Shown here piece after piece: positions 1 through 18,252 of a stretch of 64,000 nt of DNA; position 1 is the first letter of the stretch, and the number at the start of each line of letters is the position of its first letter. The position numbers were made by a program, and so were the translations under genes. Origin of the DNA: Escherichia coli (lineage in GTDB: Bacteria; Pseudomonadota; Gammaproteobacteria; Enterobacterales; Enterobacteriaceae); assembly GCF_044647545.1 (NCBI RefSeq), contig NZ_CP172818.1. The stretch is one strand, 5' to 3'. A model generated the notes under the pieces. The model made no database searches and was not told the origin of the DNA. It worked only from the letters and a program-made list of their open reading frames with translations.

Positions 1-276
1 GAGTTCTGCAAGGTTGCTCTCTAACTGTTGCAACAGATGGCGGATCTGCGAATGGAATATTTTACCTTGTTCCGAGAGTTGCAGCGGCGTCACCTGGCGG
101 TTAAACAATTCAACGCCAATCGCCTGTTCCAGCGCACGGATGCGGCGGCTGAATGCCGGTTGCGAGACGTTGCGACTGACTGCTGCCTGGGAAAAATTGC
201 GGCATTTTTCCAGGGTCAGAAAATCATAAAGCCATTTAGTTTCAATATTATGCAAAACCGCACCACAGTCATCCAT
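1..276 (-). CDS. hypT: LysR-family transcriptional regulator HypT (YjiE), N-terminal 92 codons only; gene continues beyond window start
   Basis: Reverse translation from the ATG at 274-276 gives MDDCGAVLHNIETKWLYDFLTLEKCRNFSQAAVSRNVSQPAFSRRIRALEQ, a LysR-type HTH N-terminus recognised as HypT. Confidence 0.8.
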   Translation of the reverse strand, partial: MDDCGAVLHNIETKWLYDFLTLEKCRNFSQAAVSRNVSQPAFSRRIRALEQAIGVELFNRQVTPLQLSEQGKIFHSQIRHLLQQLESNLAEL

Positions 277-340
277 TACGTTTTACTCTGTCAGCCGCCC
301 TTGCGGGCATTCTACGTCCATTCGGGCGGCTGACAACCGT

Positions 341-1513
341 TTATGCCGTTTCAAACGTTCCTTTCACGCAGGCTTTGCCGTCTTTGACCATCAGCTTGCC
401 GCGAGCGTATACCTGCTCAATGCGTAATTCTGGCGTCATGACCAGTAAGTCTGCGTCATTGCCTGGCAGAATTTCGCCTTTCCCGCTCAGGTTAAGGAAA
501 CCGGCTACGCTACTGGTGAGCGGGCGCAGGGCATCGCTGATACTGAAATCATAATCTTTGACCAGCACCTGCACGGTTTCCAGCAACGTTTCAAAACCGG
601 CAACACCGATATGGGTTAAATTCCCTTCGTCATCGAAGAACGGCTGGCTACCGTTGCCGTCGGAGCTGAGGGTGACGCGTGCCAGCGGAATACCCGCCTG
701 AACGGCGCGGGCAATACCTTCGGCAGGGGCGACTGGTTCGTCAATGCTGCTGGTGATATCGATGGTGCCGCCTTTGCGCGCGAACTCCAGCGCCTGCTCA
801 AACAACGGAACGTTGCGGTTAACGTGGGTCGGCAGCAACTTGCTAATCGGCACATCGCAGTTTTCCAGCAGGTCATAGACAGGCTGTAACGCCTTTTTGC
901 TGTCGCCCATGTGGAACACGGTGACGCCAGGTTTACCGCCGAGCAAACCGCCAACGCGGGATTCCGCCGCCATATTAGCCAGGTGATAAACGTCCGGTGC
1001 GGCAGAACGGTGATCAGAGATGGCGCATTTCACGCCAATCACGCGATCGATAATCGCCACGTCTTTTTCCACGGAACCCGTAATAGTGCGGGAAGGGACA
1101 TGATAAGCGCCGGTCAGCATCCAGGCGCTGATGCCTTCTTCATTGAGCGCACGGGTCTTGGCGAGCAGGGATTCCGGGTGGCGAGAGATAGAGTCGGTGC
1201 CCAGCAGACCAACCACTGACGTGACGCCTGCTTCCGTCAGACGACTTAACGCCACTTCCGGCGTGCGCGTCGTGGGACCTGCTTCGCCGCCACCGCCAAT
1301 CAAATGGACGTGTTGATCAATAAAACCTGGGCAGAGGATCTGCCCGCTGAGATCGACAACCGTGCAGTCCGGTACAATGTCAGAAGGGATATTACTGGCA
1401 ACGGCGATAATTTTGCCGTTAGCGACGAGGACATCGCAAATTCCCCGATCTTCCGGCGCATACAAATGCGCTCCCTGCAGCAGGGTAAAACCGGCTGCGG
1501 TATAATCAATCAT
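341..1513 (-). CDS. iadA: isoaspartyl dipeptidase
   Basis: 390-aa ORF with amidohydrolase HxH and GGGGE motifs; recognised as IadA; 3' gene of the yjiHG-iadA operon. Confidence 0.9.
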   Translation of the reverse strand: MIDYTAAGFTLLQGAHLYAPEDRGICDVLVANGKIIAVASNIPSDIVPDCTVVDLSGQILCPGFIDQHVHLIGGGGEAGPTTRTPEVALSRLTEAGVTSVVGLLGTDSISRHPESLLAKTRALNEEGISAWMLTGAYHVPSRTITGSVEKDVAIIDRVIGVKCAISDHRSAAPDVYHLANMAAESRVGGLLGGKPGVTVFHMGDSKKALQPVYDLLENCDVPISKLLPTHVNRNVPLFEQALEFARKGGTIDITSSIDEPVAPAEGIARAVQAGIPLARVTLSSDGNGSQPFFDDEGNLTHIGVAGFETLLETVQVLVKDYDFSISDALRPLTSSVAGFLNLSGKGEILPGNDADLLVMTPELRIEQVYARGKLMVKDGKACVKGTFETA

Positions 1514-1525
1514 GGTAACTCCTTG

Positions 1526-1987
1526 TTAAACAATAAGCTGCATAACCCAGATCGACAGCAATGCGTTAATCACGCAGACCGTAATGATATGCGGGTAATA
1601 TTTGGCATTCACTTCGGCTGTCCCCAGGCAGCGACCGACATTTTGCACCGGGTTGCCCATTAAATACATCGCGGGCAGTAAAACGGTGACATCGTGACCG
1701 GTTAATGCGCCAGCGGTTGCCAGACTGGCGGCAACACCGACTGCGCCGCCCATACTCATTAATGCGGCTAAAAGGACGGTTGCCGCTTCACCGGGTAATC
1801 CCCACAGCGCCATTACGGGTTCACAGATATGCCCCACCCAGTCGAGCAGGCCGGTAATTTTCAGCGCCTGAATGATGACAAACGCCATCACCACGTTTGG
1901 CAGCAGGTTGGTCGTGGCGATAGTAAAGCCACGGCGCGCACCATCGATAAACATATCCATGACGTTTTTGCGGACCTGAGTTGTCAT
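1526..1987 (-). CDS. yjiG: inner membrane protein YjiG (nucleoside-recognition/SpmB-like)
   Basis: 153-aa hydrophobic ORF; overlaps yjiH stop by 4 bp (translational coupling). Confidence 0.85.
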   Translation of the reverse strand: MTTQVRKNVMDMFIDGARRGFTIATTNLLPNVVMAFVIIQALKITGLLDWVGHICEPVMALWGLPGEAATVLLAALMSMGGAVGVAASLATAGALTGHDVTVLLPAMYLMGNPVQNVGRCLGTAEVNAKYYPHIITVCVINALLSIWVMQLIV

Positions 1988-2679
1988 GCTTGCGCTCCTT
2001 GCGTTGGGTTGCGACGTTCTTCGAAGTTAAGCCAGACGCGCAAAATGTTGGCTCCGACAAATTTAAACACCAGGATGACTGCTAAAGGTACGATTACGGA
2101 CGTGCCCAGAAAGGCAAACACCGCGACGCCGGAAGAGAAGTAGTTGGTGATAATGGCGCTACCACTGGTTTGATATGCGGCGAAAATCACTTTATCGCGT
2201 TCGGTAATTTCACCTTCCTGCGCCAGCTCTTTGGTCATACCTGCGGCGGCATCGGTGTTTTGCAGGTTAGCGATCAGCGCCAGCGAGCAGATCCCTGGAA
2301 TGCCCAACAACGGTTTTAGCACTGGCGTCATTAACTGCTGCGCGGCGCGTAATCCGCCAAGACCATCGGTAATTGAAATAATCCCCAGAGAGAGAATGAC
2401 TGACGGTGCCAGCTCCAGCGCAAAGAGAAAGCCATCTTTAGCCCCCGCGCCACCCGCGCCGCGAAACGAGGTGGTGGCTCCGTTCGCACCAGGCAGTTGC
2501 CCAAACGATCCGTTCAGAACGGAAAAATCAAAAACGCGCCACCAACTGTCTGTCCCGGAAAAAACACCGGAAAAAAAGATTATGGTGAGAAAAAAAGCCA
2601 GATACCCTTTAATGCCCACTTTTTCTGTCGCCAGCTCCCCGGCTACAGCATCCCCTTGTTGTGTCATAACAATCCCCAT
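1984..2679 (-). CDS. yjiH: inner membrane protein YjiH (SpmA-like)
   Basis: 231-aa hydrophobic ORF upstream of yjiG in the same operon. Confidence 0.8.
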   Translation of the reverse strand: MGIVMTQQGDAVAGELATEKVGIKGYLAFFLTIIFFSGVFSGTDSWWRVFDFSVLNGSFGQLPGANGATTSFRGAGGAGAKDGFLFALELAPSVILSLGIISITDGLGGLRAAQQLMTPVLKPLLGIPGICSLALIANLQNTDAAAGMTKELAQEGEITERDKVIFAAYQTSGSAIITNYFSSGVAVFAFLGTSVIVPLAVILVFKFVGANILRVWLNFEERRNPTQGAQA

Positions 2680-2916
2680 TGTTTTTTTGTGTTTGTGTGT
2701 TGCTTGAGCCAGGAAAATTCCTGGAGCTGAAAAACCTTATCAGCCATGTGGGTATGGGGAAAATGCAAGTATGTTTCTGACTATGCGTTTTTTGCATAGC
2801 GGTAAAATTACGCTGTGTGGAAAAGGTTCTACGCAGGATTGAGTTGCAGAAAATTCATAAACCCAGTGACAATGACATAGTAAATAAAAAACAGATAATC
2901 CAGGGACGAAAACGCG

Positions 2917-3471
2917 ATGGCAAAGTACAACGAAAAAGAGCTGGCGGATACGAGCAAGTTTTTAAGTTTTGTCCTCCGACACAAACCGGAGGCGATTGGT
3001 ATCGTACTGGACCGTGAAGGATGGGCGGATATCGATAAGCTCATACTTTGTGCCCAAAAAGCGGGCAAGCGGTTAACCCGTGCATTGCGGGATACTGTGG
3101 TTGCCACCAGCGATAAAAAGCGTTTTAGTTATTCCAGTGATGGTAGGTGCATCCGCGCGGTTCAGGGGCATTCGACTTCGCAGGTCGCTATTTCCTTTGC
3201 CGAAAAAACACCGCCACAGTTTCTCTACCACGGTACGGCAAGCCGTTTCCTTGACGAGATAAAAAAACAGGGGCTGATTGCAGGTGAGCGTCACTACGTA
3301 CATCTCTCTGCTGATGAAGCAACGGCACGCAAAGTGGGAGCAAGACACGGATCGCCGGTTATTTTAACCGTCAAAGCACAGGAAATGGCGAAACGAGGCC
3401 TCCCTTTCTGGCAAGCGGAAAACGGGGTCTGGCTGACATCAACGGTTGCGGTTGAGTTTCTTGAGTGGTAA
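2917..3471 (+). CDS. kptA: RNA 2'-phosphotransferase (Tpt1/KptA family)
   Basis: 184-aa ORF recognised as KptA; length matches. Confidence 0.9.
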
Positions 3472-12650: not shown

Positions 12651-14801
12651 TTAGTGGTGCGAAGAGATCTTCACGCCGCCTTCCGGGATTGGAACGTACG
12701 GTGTTTCTTTGTCAGTACGTTTGTCGCTGTTACGCACCGCAAGCCAGGTTTTGAAACCGTAGAAGATGATGCTGTACACCACAATCAGGAACAGAATACT
12801 CAGACCTGCGTTGGTGTAGTTGTTCACAACGATGTGGTTCATGTTGGCAATCTGCTGCGCCGTCAGGTCAGTACCGTTAGCAATCTTCTCTTTGTACTGG
12901 CTTGCCATGTAGAAGAAGCCTTCCATCTGCGGGTTGGTGCTGAACAGTTTCAGGCCCAGCGCCCAGGTGGTGCAGATAAGCAGCCATACAGCCGGAACAA
13001 CAGTTACCCAGATGTATTGGGTGCGCTTCATCTTAATCAGCACAACGGTGCCCAGTACCAGCGCTACGGCTGCCAGCATCTGGTTGGAAATACCGAACAG
13101 CGGCCACAGGCTCTTAACGCCGCCCAGCGGATCGACCACGCCCTGATACAGCAGGTAGCCCCACAGACCCACACAGCCCGCAGTACCGATGATACCGGCA
13201 ACCAGAGAGTCGGTTTTTTTCAGGAACGGGATGAAGTTACCCAGCAGGTCTTGCAGCATAAAGCGGCCAGAACGGGTACCCGCATCCAGCGCGGTCAGGA
13301 TGAACAGTGCTTCGAACAGAATACCGAAGTGATACCAGAAGCCCATGTCAGCCATCGGCAGCACTTTGTGGAACACGTGAGCGATACCTACCGCCAGCGT
13401 CGGCGCACCACCTGCACGGTTCAGGACAGAAGGCTCACCAATGTCTTTCGCGGTTTGCAGGATCTGCTCTGGCGAAATCACGAAGCCCCAGGAGCTGACG
13501 GTCGCTGCCGCGTGTGCGGTAACGTCTTTCAGCTGCGCCATGATGATCGGCGCGTTCTCGCCACCCATTTCATGCAGGTTAGGCATGGTGATGCCAAGGC
13601 CAGCAGGCGGGGTGTTCATCGCGAAGTAAAGACCCGGTTCGATGATGGACGCAGCAACCAGCGCCATAATCGCCACGAAGGACTCCATCAGCATTGCGCC
13701 GTAGCCGATGAAACGCGCGTCGGTTTCATTAGCCAGCAGTTTTGGCGTCGTACCGGAAGAGATCAGCGCGTGGAAGCCAGATACCGCACCACAGGCGATG
13801 GTGATGAACAGGAACGGGAACAGAGCGCCTTTCCACAGCGGGCCAGTACCGTCAATGTACTGGGTCATGGCAGGCATTTTCAGTTCCGGGTTCAGCACCA
13901 CGATACCCAGCGCCAGGCCGACGATAACGCCGATTTTCAGGAAGGTTGCCAGATAGTCGCGCGGTGCGAGGATCAGCCACACCGGCAGCAGTGCGGAAAC
14001 AAACGCATAGCCAATCAGCGCGAAGGTAATGGTGGTGTCTTTAAAGGTCAGTGCCGGACCCCAGTACGGATCGTGAGCAATCACGCCACCGAAGTAGATA
14101 GAGGCAACCAGCAGCACGATACCAATGACAGAGACTTCACCCACACGCCCCGGACGAATAAAGCGCATGTAGATACCCATAAACAGCGCAATCGGTACGG
14201 TTGAGCAAACGGTGAAGACACCCCACGGACTTTCGGCCAGGGCTTTAACCACAATCAGCGCCAGGACGGCGAGGATGATGATCATGATTAAGAAACAGCC
14301 AAACAGCGCGATAGTCCCCGGTACTGGTCCCATCTCTTCTTTGATCATCTCACCAAGAGATGCGCCATTACGGCGAGAGGAGATAAACAGCACCATAAAG
14401 TCCTGAACCGCACCGGCCAGCACGACCCCCGCCAGCAGCCACAGCGTGCCAGGCAGGTAGCCCATCTGCGCGGCGAGAACCGGACCCACCAGCGGACCAG
14501 CACCGGCGATAGCGGCGAAGTGGTGACCAAACAACACGTAACGGTTGGTCGGAACGTAGTTCAGACCGTCGTTGTTAATAACCGCAGGCGTCGCGCGCGT
14601 GGGGTCGAGTTTCATCACCTTCTGGGCGATGTACAGACTGTAGTAGCGATACGCCACCAGATACACCGATACAGAGGCGACCACGATCCACAGGGCGCTG
14701 ACGTGCTCCCCCCGACGTAATGCAACTACCGCGAGGCAGAATGCACCGATGATTCCGAGAATCACCCAGGGTATGTGCTTGAATATCTTTTTAGTATCCA
14801 T
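12651..14801 (-). CDS. btsT: pyruvate/H+ symporter, CstA family
   Basis: 716-aa polytopic ORF starting MDTKKIFKHIPWVILG; recognised as BtsT (YjiY). Confidence 0.9.
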   Translation of the reverse strand: MDTKKIFKHIPWVILGIIGAFCLAVVALRRGEHVSALWIVVASVSVYLVAYRYYSLYIAQKVMKLDPTRATPAVINNDGLNYVPTNRYVLFGHHFAAIAGAGPLVGPVLAAQMGYLPGTLWLLAGVVLAGAVQDFMVLFISSRRNGASLGEMIKEEMGPVPGTIALFGCFLIMIIILAVLALIVVKALAESPWGVFTVCSTVPIALFMGIYMRFIRPGRVGEVSVIGIVLLVASIYFGGVIAHDPYWGPALTFKDTTITFALIGYAFVSALLPVWLILAPRDYLATFLKIGVIVGLALGIVVLNPELKMPAMTQYIDGTGPLWKGALFPFLFITIACGAVSGFHALISSGTTPKLLANETDARFIGYGAMLMESFVAIMALVAASIIEPGLYFAMNTPPAGLGITMPNLHEMGGENAPIIMAQLKDVTAHAAATVSSWGFVISPEQILQTAKDIGEPSVLNRAGGAPTLAVGIAHVFHKVLPMADMGFWYHFGILFEALFILTALDAGTRSGRFMLQDLLGNFIPFLKKTDSLVAGIIGTAGCVGLWGYLLYQGVVDPLGGVKSLWPLFGISNQMLAAVALVLGTVVLIKMKRTQYIWVTVVPAVWLLICTTWALGLKLFSTNPQMEGFFYMASQYKEKIANGTDLTAQQIANMNHIVVNNYTNAGLSILFLIVVYSIIFYGFKTWLAVRNSDKRTDKETPYVPIPEGGVKISSHH

Positions 14802-14957
14802 AGTAAAACCTGGCATGTATTGATTAATAGTTGGCCGAAGCCGTTCTAGGTTTGCGTTGCGTTTGAGGAGGTAAATTGACCGCTATCCTGTAGTGATGTT
14901 GCCAGAGTTACGCGCGCGTAAAGTAAGGTAAATAACTGAGTGGTTATTTTAGGGATG

Positions 14958-15177: not shown

Positions 15178-16842
15178 ATGTTAAAACGTATCAAAATTGT
15201 GACCAGCTTACTGCTGGTTTTGGCCGTTTTTGGCCTTTTACAACTGACATCAGGCGGTCTGTTCTTTAATGCCTTAAAGAATGACAAAGAAAATTTCACT
15301 GTTTTACAAACCATTCGCCAGCAGCAATCCACGCTGAATGGCAGCTGGGTCGCGTTGTTGCAGACGCGTAACACCCTCAACCGCGCGGGTATCCGCTACA
15401 TGATGGATCAGAATAATATTGGTAGCGGTTCAACCGTTGCTGAGCTGATGCAGAGTGCCAGTATTTCGCTGAAACAGGCGGAAAAAAACTGGGCGGATTA
15501 CGAAGCGTTGCCGCGTGACCCGCGTCAGAGCACCGCCGCAGCGGCAGAGATCAAACGTAATTACGATATTTATCACAATGCGCTGGCGGAGCTGATCCAA
15601 CTGTTAGGTGCAGGCAAAATCAACGAGTTCTTTGATCAGCCGACTCAGGGATATCAGGACGGTTTCGAGAAGCAGTATGTGGCTTACATGGAACAAAACG
15701 ATCGGCTCCATGATATCGCCGTCAGCGATAACAATGCCTCCTACAGCCAGGCGATGTGGATTCTGGTGGGCGTGATGATCGTCGTACTGGCGGTCATCTT
15801 CGCCGTCTGGTTCGGTATTAAAGCCTCGCTGGTAGCGCCAATGAATCGCCTGATTGACAGCATTCGTCATATTGCAGGCGGCGATCTGGTGAAACCGATT
15901 GAGGTGGATGGCTCTAATGAGATGGGGCAACTGGCAGAGAGTTTGCGCCATATGCAGGGAGAGCTGATGCGTACCGTCGGTGATGTGCGCAACGGGGCCA
16001 ATGCCATCTATAGCGGTGCCAGCGAAATCGCTACCGGCAATAACGATCTCTCTTCGCGCACCGAGCAACAGGCTGCTTCGCTGGAAGAGACGGCAGCCAG
16101 CATGGAGCAACTGACCGCAACGGTGAAACAGAACGCCGAGAATGCGCGCCAGGCCAGCCACCTGGCGTTAAGTGCTTCTGAAACGGCGCAACGCGGCGGC
16201 AAAGTGGTAGATAACGTGGTGCAGACTATGCGTGATATCTCCACCAGTTCGCAGAAAATCGCCGATATTATCAGCGTAATTGACGGCATTGCCTTCCAGA
16301 CCAATATTCTGGCTTTGAACGCGGCGGTTGAAGCAGCGCGTGCGGGTGAGCAAGGACGTGGTTTTGCGGTGGTTGCGGGAGAAGTGCGTAATCTGGCCCA
16401 GCGTAGCGCCCAGGCGGCTCGTGAAATTAAAAGCCTGATTGAAGACTCGGTGGGGAAAGTGGATGTTGGCTCTACGCTGGTCGAAAGCGCCGGGGAAACA
16501 ATGGCGGAGATTGTCAGTGCTGTGACCCGCGTGACGGACATTATGGGCGAAATTGCTTCTGCTTCTGATGAGCAGAGCCGTGGTATCGATCAGGTTGGCT
16601 TAGCGGTTGCTGAGATGGACCGGGTAACTCAACAGAACGCCGCGCTGGTGGAAGAATCTGCCGCCGCCGCCGCCGCGCTGGAAGAGCAGGCCAGTCGCCT
16701 GACCGAAGCAGTGGCAGTGTTCCGGATTCAGCAACAGCAGCAACAGCAGCGTGAAACATCGGCTGTGGTAAAAACCGTGATGCCAGCTGCGCCGCGTAAA
16801 ATGGCCGTGGCAGATAGCGGTGAGAACTGGGAAACGTTTTAA
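15178..16842 (+). CDS. tsr: methyl-accepting chemotaxis protein I (serine sensor)
   Basis: 554-aa ORF with HAMP and MCP signalling domain, C-terminal NWETF pentapeptide; carries a 7-Gln tract near the C-terminus. Confidence 0.9.
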
Positions 16843-16852
16843 TCGCCATAAA

Positions 16853-16884
16853 AATGCCCGATAAGCAAAATGTTATCGGGCATA
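16853..16884. terminator. bidirectional hairpin between convergent tsr and lgoT
   Basis: Inverted repeat gcccgataa ... ttatcgggc. Confidence 0.5.
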
Positions 16885-16890
16885 GGGAGA

Positions 16891-18252
16891 TTAATCTTTC
16901 CGTGGGTCGTTGATCGGCTGACGAACCAGGAAGATGTACGCCAGTGCCCCCGCTGCGGTGACGCAACCGCAGATGATTAGTGCCAGACGGAATGAGTGGG
17001 TGGTATCAACAATAAAACCAGTAATGATCGGCGCAAAAGAGGCGCAGATGAAGCTGGCAAAGTTCTGGATACTGCCCACCGACGCAGTCATGCGAGAAGC
17101 AACTGCGACGTGGATCAAGCCCCAGCAGGATGTTCCGGCAAAGTGAATACAGAACAGTGCCATACCAATCAGCAGAACCGCTGTCATGGATGTTGTCGCT
17201 TGCGGTACGACCAGCGTAAAGGCGGCAGAACAGAACATCCCGGCAATAATGCAGATCTTACGGCTTTTAATCGGAGCCATTCCCCCTTTGACCAGCCAGT
17301 CAGTAACGTAACCGTTGACCAGCATCCCGGCAGCCCCAAACAGGAAAGGGATAGCCGCCATCAACCCTGTGCTTTTTAAATCCAGGTTATAGGCTGTTTG
17401 CAGGTAACCAGGAAGCCAGGCCAGATACAGCCACGCAGTGTAGTTGATGCCACTGAATCCGAGCATCATTCCCCACATTGTGCGGTTACGGAACAAGCTG
17501 CGCCATTCGGCAAAACTGAGCGGATCTCGGCGGGCATTGACGCTACCTGCATTGAGATAAGCTTGTTCAACGGCAGTCAGTTCTACGTGCTCGCGGTTGC
17601 GATAGAGCATATACCAGCCGATGGCGAGAAAAATCCCCAGTACACCAATGGTAATAAACATCCCGCGCCAGCCCATCACCAGCATCATCGCCGCCAGAAT
17701 CGGTGGGCTTACGGCAACGCCAATGGTAGAAGCTGCGTTGAAGAAGCCCATCGGGCGTCCGCGCTCTTTGATGTTGAACCAGTCGTTAATGACTTTTACA
17801 CCGCATGGGTTCATCGGCGCTTCACCAATTCCCATACCGATACGCACCAACACGAACTGCGTAAAGCTGTGCACCATGCCAGACATTGCCTGGAACAGTG
17901 ACCAGAAGAACATCCCCAGTCCCAACATCAGGCGCGGGCCTTTACGATCCAATAGTGGGCCGCAAGGAAGTTGCGCAATCCCGTAAGCGAGTGAAAACAC
18001 GGAGAGCAAAGCGCCGATTTCGGTGGCACTTAATCCCAATTCTTCACGAATCGTTAAATTTGCTACCGACAGCGAACTGCGGTCGAGATAATTGATTACC
18101 GCCGCAAAAAATAATAACAACATGGCGGTGGTTTGAATGCGTTTAATTCGGGTACTGCGTTGAACTAATCCATCTGGTGGCACGGGAATATCTGCCGACG
18201 AAGATGGAGTAAATGAAGAACGCGGATCGAGGGTGATATTTTCTTTTTCCAC
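16891..18252 (-). CDS. lgoT: L-galactonate MFS transporter
   Basis: 453-aa MFS ORF recognised as YjjL/LgoT. Confidence 0.85.
   Translation of the reverse strand: MEKENITLDPRSSFTPSSSADIPVPPDGLVQRSTRIKRIQTTAMLLLFFAAVINYLDRSSLSVANLTIREELGLSATEIGALLSVFSLAYGIAQLPCGPLLDRKGPRLMLGLGMFFWSLFQAMSGMVHSFTQFVLVRIGMGIGEAPMNPCGVKVINDWFNIKERGRPMGFFNAASTIGVAVSPPILAAMMLVMGWRGMFITIGVLGIFLAIGWYMLYRNREHVELTAVEQAYLNAGSVNARRDPLSFAEWRSLFRNRTMWGMMLGFSGINYTAWLYLAWLPGYLQTAYNLDLKSTGLMAAIPFLFGAAGMLVNGYVTDWLVKGGMAPIKSRKICIIAGMFCSAAFTLVVPQATTSMTAVLLIGMALFCIHFAGTSCWGLIHVAVASRMTASVGSIQNFASFICASFAPIITGFIVDTTHSFRLALIICGCVTAAGALAYIFLVRQPINDPRKD

Follow-up and report, generated by a model that had tools for sequence, protein, structure and literature searches.

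The glutamine tract in the C-terminal tether of Escherichia coli Tsr varies among strains in whole 9-bp units

The tsr locus

We analysed a 64,000-nt stretch of Escherichia coli DNA (hereafter the window), in which the coding sequence of tsr, encoding the serine chemoreceptor (MCP-I), occupies positions 15178..16842 of the plus strand (554 aa plus stop). The gene was assigned from the list of ORFs and from its identity to annotated tsr. Over 1665 nt it shows 100% identity to tsr as annotated in strain Nissle 1917, and the same allele is found in hundreds of other strains; outside the Gln tract described below it differs from the K-12 gene at 24 of 1644 nt. This high full-length identity identifies the product as a Tsr orthologue. 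In the RefSeq annotation of Nissle 1917, which carries identical tsr DNA, the gene lies between btsT and lgoT. The minus-strand ORFs 12651..14816 and 16891..18252, which flank tsr in the window, show the spacing of btsT and lgoT of Nissle 1917, and the order btsT-tsr-lgoT is also found in K-12. For the window, the conservation of the locus was judged by comparing ORF positions and spacing with those of Nissle 1917 and K-12.

Between tsr and lgoT, which are convergent and 48 nt apart, lies a predicted terminator-like hairpin (16854..16883, no strand assigned; a consensus match only). Its stem has 11 pairs, with a T-run after it on the minus (lgoT) strand, and the A-rich sequence on the tsr side suggests that it possibly also serves tsr. 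A TTG-start ORF of 141 aa (16541..16966, minus strand) runs antisense to the 3' end of the conserved and annotated tsr and overlaps the Gln tract, which it would translate as an Ala/Val-rich stretch (...AAVAAVAE...). This ORF is presumed to be spurious because there is no annotation at that position in any genome inspected.

The flanks of tsr were compared in loci L002-L009 and L084-L091. The upstream neighbour is btsT, hpaR of the hpa operon, a hypothetical gene (Sakai, ET350) or a MurR/RpiR regulator (M9682-C1), and the downstream neighbour is either lgoT or a TRAP transporter operon (S87, LF82, FDAARGOS_1283, RM14723, A13); tsr lies at a junction of variable segments. The btsT gene beside tsr in RM14723 (L086, 1-122), a strain with 13 Gln, is annotated as a frameshifted pseudogene.

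The Gln tract consists of 9-bp units

Positions 16726-16752 (att, seven Gln codons, cgt) encode I517, Q518-Q524 and R525. The Gln tract itself, CAG CAA CAG CAG CAA CAG CAG, lies at 16729..16749 on the plus strand, as seen in the sequence and the codon view. The first-pass annotation had reported seven Gln in a 554-aa Tsr between 16720 and 16760, which we confirmed, and it had given K-12 Tsr as shorter, with fewer Gln, which is right: tsr of MG1655 is 1656 nt long, exactly 9 bp shorter than that of the window, and encodes 551 aa with CAGCAACAGCAG (4 Gln).

Tandem Repeats Finder described the tract as a period-9 repeat of CAGCAACAG with 2.4 copies, a match of 100% and a score of 44. As a period-3 CAG repeat, the tract reached a match of 78% and a score of 30. 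A pure trinucleotide microsatellite is ruled out by the fixed 9-bp CAG/CAA pattern and by this difference between the two periods. On the plus strand, the first unit (CAGCAACAG) occupies 16729..16737, as assigned by Tandem Repeats Finder and by the difference of alleles in whole units. The second (also CAGCAACAG) occupies 16738..16746 and is missing in K-12, as seen in the codon view and in an alignment of alleles with 4, 7 and 10 Gln (hereafter 4Q, 7Q and 10Q). A partial third unit (CAG, 16747..16749; Tandem Repeats Finder and codon view) closes the array. Since Gln is encoded by CAG and CAA only, the perfect 9-bp periodicity of a single allele would be only weakly significant by itself. The 9-bp unit is established by the series of alleles with 4, 7, 10 and 13 Gln, which follow the formula (CAGCAACAG)n+CAG with n = 1-4. 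The tract is therefore an in-frame variable-number tandem repeat (VNTR) of head-to-tail 9-bp copies, with two copies plus CAG in the window and one, three or four copies elsewhere.

The same gene also contains a trinucleotide repeat that is purer than the Gln tract, the (GCC)5.7 run at 16660-16676, which encodes Ala6 in the structured methylation helix. The length of this run is constant throughout the 18 E. coli alleles and also in the Enterobacteriaceae orthologues nearest to E. coli; in more distant genera some of the Ala residues are replaced. The contrast between Ala6 and the Gln tract indicates that repeat purity alone gives no variation where structure forbids indels.

The Gln tract is the first segment of the NWETF tether

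Conservation in Tsr has been described as ending with residue 517, the C-terminal residues beyond it being non-conserved (PMC4692393). The flexible chain of K-12 Tsr has been counted as 30 aa, starting at I517 and tethered at R516 (PMC10561060), and the NWETF tip binds CheR and phospho-CheB in K-12 Tsr and Tar (PMC7390727, PMC8609364). In the window, the non-conserved flexible linker extends from I517 to E549 (16726..16824, plus strand; 33 aa), as assigned from PMC10561060, PMC4692393, the orthologue alignment and AlphaFold2. It is followed by the pentapeptide N550-F554 (16825..16839, plus strand), which was read from the translation and whose role is taken from the studies of CheR and CheB binding cited above. 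The translation thus ends in NWETF, a C-terminal pentapeptide of the xWxxF type. In 33 orthologues N550, E552, T553 and F554 were invariant and W551 was nearly so, and the Tsr tail was not conserved and was unalignable across Enterobacteriaceae genera. In an AlphaFold2 monomer model built from the 33 orthologues, which was of moderate quality (mean pLDDT 71), the confident C-terminal helix ended at residue 513 and pLDDT was below 50 from residue 521 to the end. The 33-aa linker that joins the pentapeptide to the helical body is thus predicted to be unstructured, and its length lies within the ~30-40 aa expected of pentapeptide-tethered chemoreceptors. The Gln tract, which begins after the last conserved residue 517, is the first segment of this tether, and the first-pass annotation had correctly placed it there. 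With three residues per unit, the linkers of the four alleles are 30 (K-12), 33 (window), 36 and 39 aa long.

Allele frequencies in E. coli

We surveyed 5,426 complete E. coli genomes, 5,385 of which contained full-length tsr. Alleles were counted from bands of BLAST identity and coverage, not by parsing each genome, and the counts of 4Q and 10Q are good to ~1-2%. A 101-nt probe centred on the tract of the window matched 5,342 genomes, 4,058 of them at ≥95% identity and 1,284 below. The difference between 5,385 and 5,342 is explained by alleles with an interrupted tract, QQEQQRQ, which are missed by this probe. Since a match at ≥95% identity contains no 9-nt gap, the 7Q length was assigned to ~4,058 genomes, or ~75% of the ~5,385 with full-length tsr. 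The 4Q allele, which is the K-12 form, was estimated by subtraction to be present in ~1,210 genomes (~22%). This estimate agrees with the result of a 4Q (K-12) probe, which gave 1,286 genomes at ≥95% identity with the two-piece hits of 10Q and 13Q included, and with the lower bound of at least 1,136 obtained from a 5Q probe run at E ≤ 1e-30 excluding the two-piece 10Q hits.

Longer tracts were rare. We used a probe in which the tract has 50 nt of flanking sequence on its left and only 20 nt on its right, together with a strict E-value; the design requires at least 8 Gln for 80% coverage, and a 9-nt gap cannot be bridged, the second piece of the hit being dropped. Of the 74 genomes detected in this way, at least 60 had exactly 10Q, and the 10Q allele is estimated at ~71 genomes (1.3%). 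A 13Q probe found three genomes (0.06%), in which Tsr has 560 aa. The interrupted QQEQQRQ allele was present in 40-42 genomes (0.8%), for example in ETEC O6:H16, and every copy had seven codons. The allele classes sum to 5,384. Among the strains, 4Q (one unit plus CAG) is carried by K-12, STEC306, S87 and ATCC 11775; 7Q (two units) by the window, Sakai and others; 10Q (three units, 557 aa) by KSC64, HS, LF82 and others; and 13Q (four units) by RM14723 and A13. The tract was the sole indel-polymorphic site among 18 E. coli tsr alleles, each of which is 1644 nt long without it.

Dedicated probes found no 5Q, 6Q or 8Q allele in ~5,300 genomes; the top single-piece hits of these probes were to alleles of 7Q or 4Q and contained a 3-nt gap. 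In 160 systematically sampled rows, none of the tract spans was off the series, all being 4Q, 7Q or 10Q. The first-pass annotation had proposed trinucleotide-repeat length variation, to be examined by comparing tsr 3' ends over E. coli genomes. The length does vary among strains, but this comparison yielded the series of 4, 7, 10 and 13 Gln, changing by whole 9-bp units, with no triplet steps. It had also named, as the observation that would speak against its proposal, a seven-Gln tract shared by K-12 and most strains: most strains indeed have 7 Gln, but K-12 has 4.

The seven-codon length appears to be ancestral

We compared the tails of Tsr in other Enterobacteriaceae. The matches listed were from Leclercia, Enterobacter, Citrobacter, Kluyvera, Hafnia, Yersinia and others together with one non-coli Escherichia, a set without E. 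albertii, E. fergusonii and Salmonella. In these proteins of 553-557 aa, the tail begins with IQQ[DE]QQK..., IQHDQQR... or similar. The closest outgroup among the matches listed was the representative of a non-coli Escherichia species (94% protein identity), which has QQAQQRQ in a Tsr of 554 aa and whose tsr aligns gap-free with the 7Q allele. A neighbour-joining (NJ) gene tree was constructed from 19 tsr sequences picked for length diversity, with the tract masked and the root placed on the non-coli Escherichia. The QQEQQRQ allele was basal, followed by an allele with QQQQQHQ (HS30-1), and the pure-Gln alleles formed the crown. Because the outgroups and the basal E. coli allele carry seven interrupted codons, the seven-codon length appears to be ancestral in E. 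coli, and the 4Q tract of K-12 would be a derived one-unit deletion. The window had been regarded in the first-pass annotation as a variant relative to K-12; the relation is the reverse, since 7Q is the majority (~75%) and, by this rooting, the ancestral length and K-12 belongs to a derived minority. The older motif is already loosely periodic at 9 bp (CAG CAA GAG, CAG CAA CGC, CAG).

The QQEQQRQ allele (L085, 489-2153, and ~40 other genomes) is divergent, with 50-69 differences from the other E. coli alleles in 1644 sites, and has the tail REASAVVKTVTPSAPRKV.... The QQQQQHQ tract of HS30-1 (L007) may represent an intermediate or a secondary point mutation.

Copy number changed on several tsr backgrounds

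When the tract was masked, alleles of different length were found to be closely related. The 7Q allele of STW0522-31 differed from the 10Q alleles of KSC64 and HS at only 1 of 1644 nt. Seven nt differed between S87 (4Q) and RM14723 (13Q), 8 nt between LF82 (10Q) and A13 (13Q), 13 sites between Sakai (7Q) and ET350 (10Q), and 15 sites between 5CRE51 (7Q) and 94-3024 (10Q). In the NJ tree, 10Q appeared in four clades, on at least four tsr haplotype backgrounds, and 4Q in two. Since 10Q is present on at least four backgrounds, one of which is a single SNP from a 7Q allele, the simplest reading is that changes in copy number recur among strains and have more than one origin, as expected of a VNTR.

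The tsr genes of K-12 MG1655 (L001, 1158-2813) and ATCC 11775 (L089, 500-2155), both 4Q, were identical at all 1644 nt, whereas other pairs of strains differed at up to 69 sites outside the tract. This suggests that the tsr allele of these two strains was transferred between lineages and that homologous recombination acts at tsr. Such recombination could spread alleles and thereby inflate the apparent number of independent events.

Discussion

The data show the allele series and its frequencies, the recurrence of lengths on different haplotypes, the position of the tract at the start of the tether, and the ancestral length. We conclude that the tract is very probably the common allele of an in-frame, near-neutral polymorphism in the copy number of a 9-bp unit, situated in a disordered spacer. 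With n = 2 (7 Gln, 33-aa linker), the window represents the majority and ancestral state; K-12 has n = 1, and n = 3 and n = 4 are rare. An older interrupted motif, QQ[E/A]QQRQ, with loose 9-bp periodicity would have been turned into a perfect repeat in most E. coli by point substitutions. Thereafter, slipped-strand mispairing of the 9-bp copies, or unequal exchange among them, would repeatedly add or remove whole units; we infer this slippage from the pattern of alleles only. The changes in length would be tolerated because the segment is a disordered spacer. Each unit adds three uncharged residues with a contour length of ~1.1 nm, so that the reach of CheR and CheB is probably shifted only slightly and the polymorphism is probably near-neutral.

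How large an effect may be expected can be estimated from Tar. Engineered Tar chains of 22, 29, 34 and 46 aa shifted the density peak of tethered CheR by 0.128 ± 0.048 nm per residue (PMC10561060). If this model is extrapolated to Tsr, one unit corresponds to a peak shift of ~0.4 nm on ~10 nm, and a crude one-dimensional version gives a CheR density at the receptor's own sites that is ~25% lower per added unit. A drop of this size in the model is not obviously negligible. On the other side, natural pentapeptide linkers have 29-39 aa in one species and up to 91 aa elsewhere, and it is the charge pattern of the linker that has been proposed to be important (bioRxiv 2024.03.07.583918), a pattern untouched by Gln units because Gln is uncharged. 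The functional effect of a three-residue change of the tether is predicted to be small.

These estimates bear on the alternative that the copy number is selected for tether length, and hence for CheR/CheB reach and adaptation kinetics, in each niche. The copy number changes on several backgrounds, the length of engineered Tar tethers measurably alters adaptation (PMC10561060), the extrapolation gives tens of percent of CheR density per unit, and the 33-aa linker of 7Q nearly equals that of Tar (34 aa), all of which would be expected if length were tuned. However, no association with host or pathotype was seen in the hit lists, each length being present in human, animal and environmental isolates. 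In addition, changes that are exclusively in frame are expected of any surviving indel in an expressed gene, the addition of Gln leaves the linker charge pattern intact, and a single organism has natural linkers of 29-39 aa side by side (bioRxiv 2024.03.07.583918). Selection of this kind is thus an unlikely account of the series. That the four-step series of tethers (30, 33, 36 and 39 aa) measurably tunes CheR/CheB reach and adaptation speed, with K-12 being atypically short, we likewise regard as unlikely, if slightly less so.

With its several alleles and recurring changes, this tandem repeat in a gene for surface signalling also resembles a contingency locus, in which high-frequency, phase-variable switching of length within clonal populations would generate receptor heterogeneity. 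The array, however, has only 1-4 copies of the 9-bp unit, far below classic contingency loci, and every change is in frame, so that expression is not switched. Moreover, assemblies of the same strain agreed at 10Q (four of HS, two of LF82 and three of strain 8178), the many K-12 derivatives were all 4Q, and every sampled O157:H7 genome was 7Q. Since the length is kept in strains that were sequenced several times, and no reversible change within a clone that switches expression was seen across assemblies, phase variation is very improbable. Although short repeats are sometimes miscalled, an assembly or sequencing artefact at a low-complexity repeat is effectively refuted, because the same discrete lengths, always in frame and in multiples of 9, have been obtained in thousands of finished genomes by many laboratories on many platforms, the 21-nt tract is far below read length, and both lengths are found in cloned proteins that were crystallised or imaged: the 7Q tail, with TPATPRK...SGENWETF, in a HAMP-Tsr chimera (PDB 3ZX6, 3zx6_A) and the K-12 4Q tail in an array model (PDB 6S1K, 6s1k_E).

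The tract matters little for the window itself, which carries the standard, ordinary E. coli Tsr allele. The gene, the tether and the 7Q allele were already known, and the series is a minor population-genetic detail of a well-known protein. It is K-12 that is the odd one out, its Tsr tether being 3 Gln shorter than that of three quarters of E. coli. It has been noted that Tsr has a shorter linker (30 aa) than Tar (34 aa), matching the shorter distances to its methylation sites (PMC10561060). This argument is valid for K-12-type alleles only, since most E. coli have a Tsr linker of 33 aa. The K-12 receptor is also the basis of quantitative models of chemotaxis, and if tuning by tether length were true, these would rest on an atypically short tether. 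The series of 4, 7, 10 and 13 Gln offers a ready-made and naturally tolerated set of tether lengths against which models of adaptation by tethered enzymes can be tested.

Comparison with known systems

The flexible C-terminal tether and pentapeptide of Tar/Tsr-type chemoreceptors were reportedly described by Bartelli & Hazelbauer in 2011 and Li & Hazelbauer in 2006. Within the limited coverage of our literature search, no paper named the Tsr repeat as a typing locus or described the series of 4, 7, 10 and 13 Gln.

Among the closest known systems is K-12 Tsr itself (P02942-type, 551 aa), the reference serine chemoreceptor, which shares the gene, the btsT-tsr-lgoT locus, the domain order and the NWETF terminus, and differs by having one 9-bp unit fewer, that is, 4 Gln in a 30-aa linker compared with 7 Gln in 33 aa. 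With Tar/Tsr-type tethers in general, Tsr of the window shares an unstructured, non-conserved arm of ~30-35 aa that ends in NWETF and recruits CheR and CheB (PMC10561060, PMC7390727), and in which engineered changes in length alter adaptation (PMC10561060). The engineered Tar tethers were changed by -5, -12 or +12 residues, whereas the Tsr alleles differ in natural steps of 3 aa, and, unlike in engineered Tar, the changes in Tsr affect only an uncharged block of Gln with which the arm begins.

The array resembles polyglutamine expansions in that a Gln run encoded by CAG and CAA codons differs in length between individuals, but the Tsr tract is not pure CAG, its unit is 9 bp, and no alleles differing by a single codon were found. 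It is closer to the in-frame VNTRs of bacteria that are used for MLVA typing, with which it shares short head-to-tail units, polymorphism in whole units, and recurrent gain and loss. In contrast to MLVA-type VNTRs, the Tsr repeat has only 1-4 copies and a frequent dominant allele, and its discriminatory power and instability are low because of this small number of copies and the high frequency of the dominant allele.
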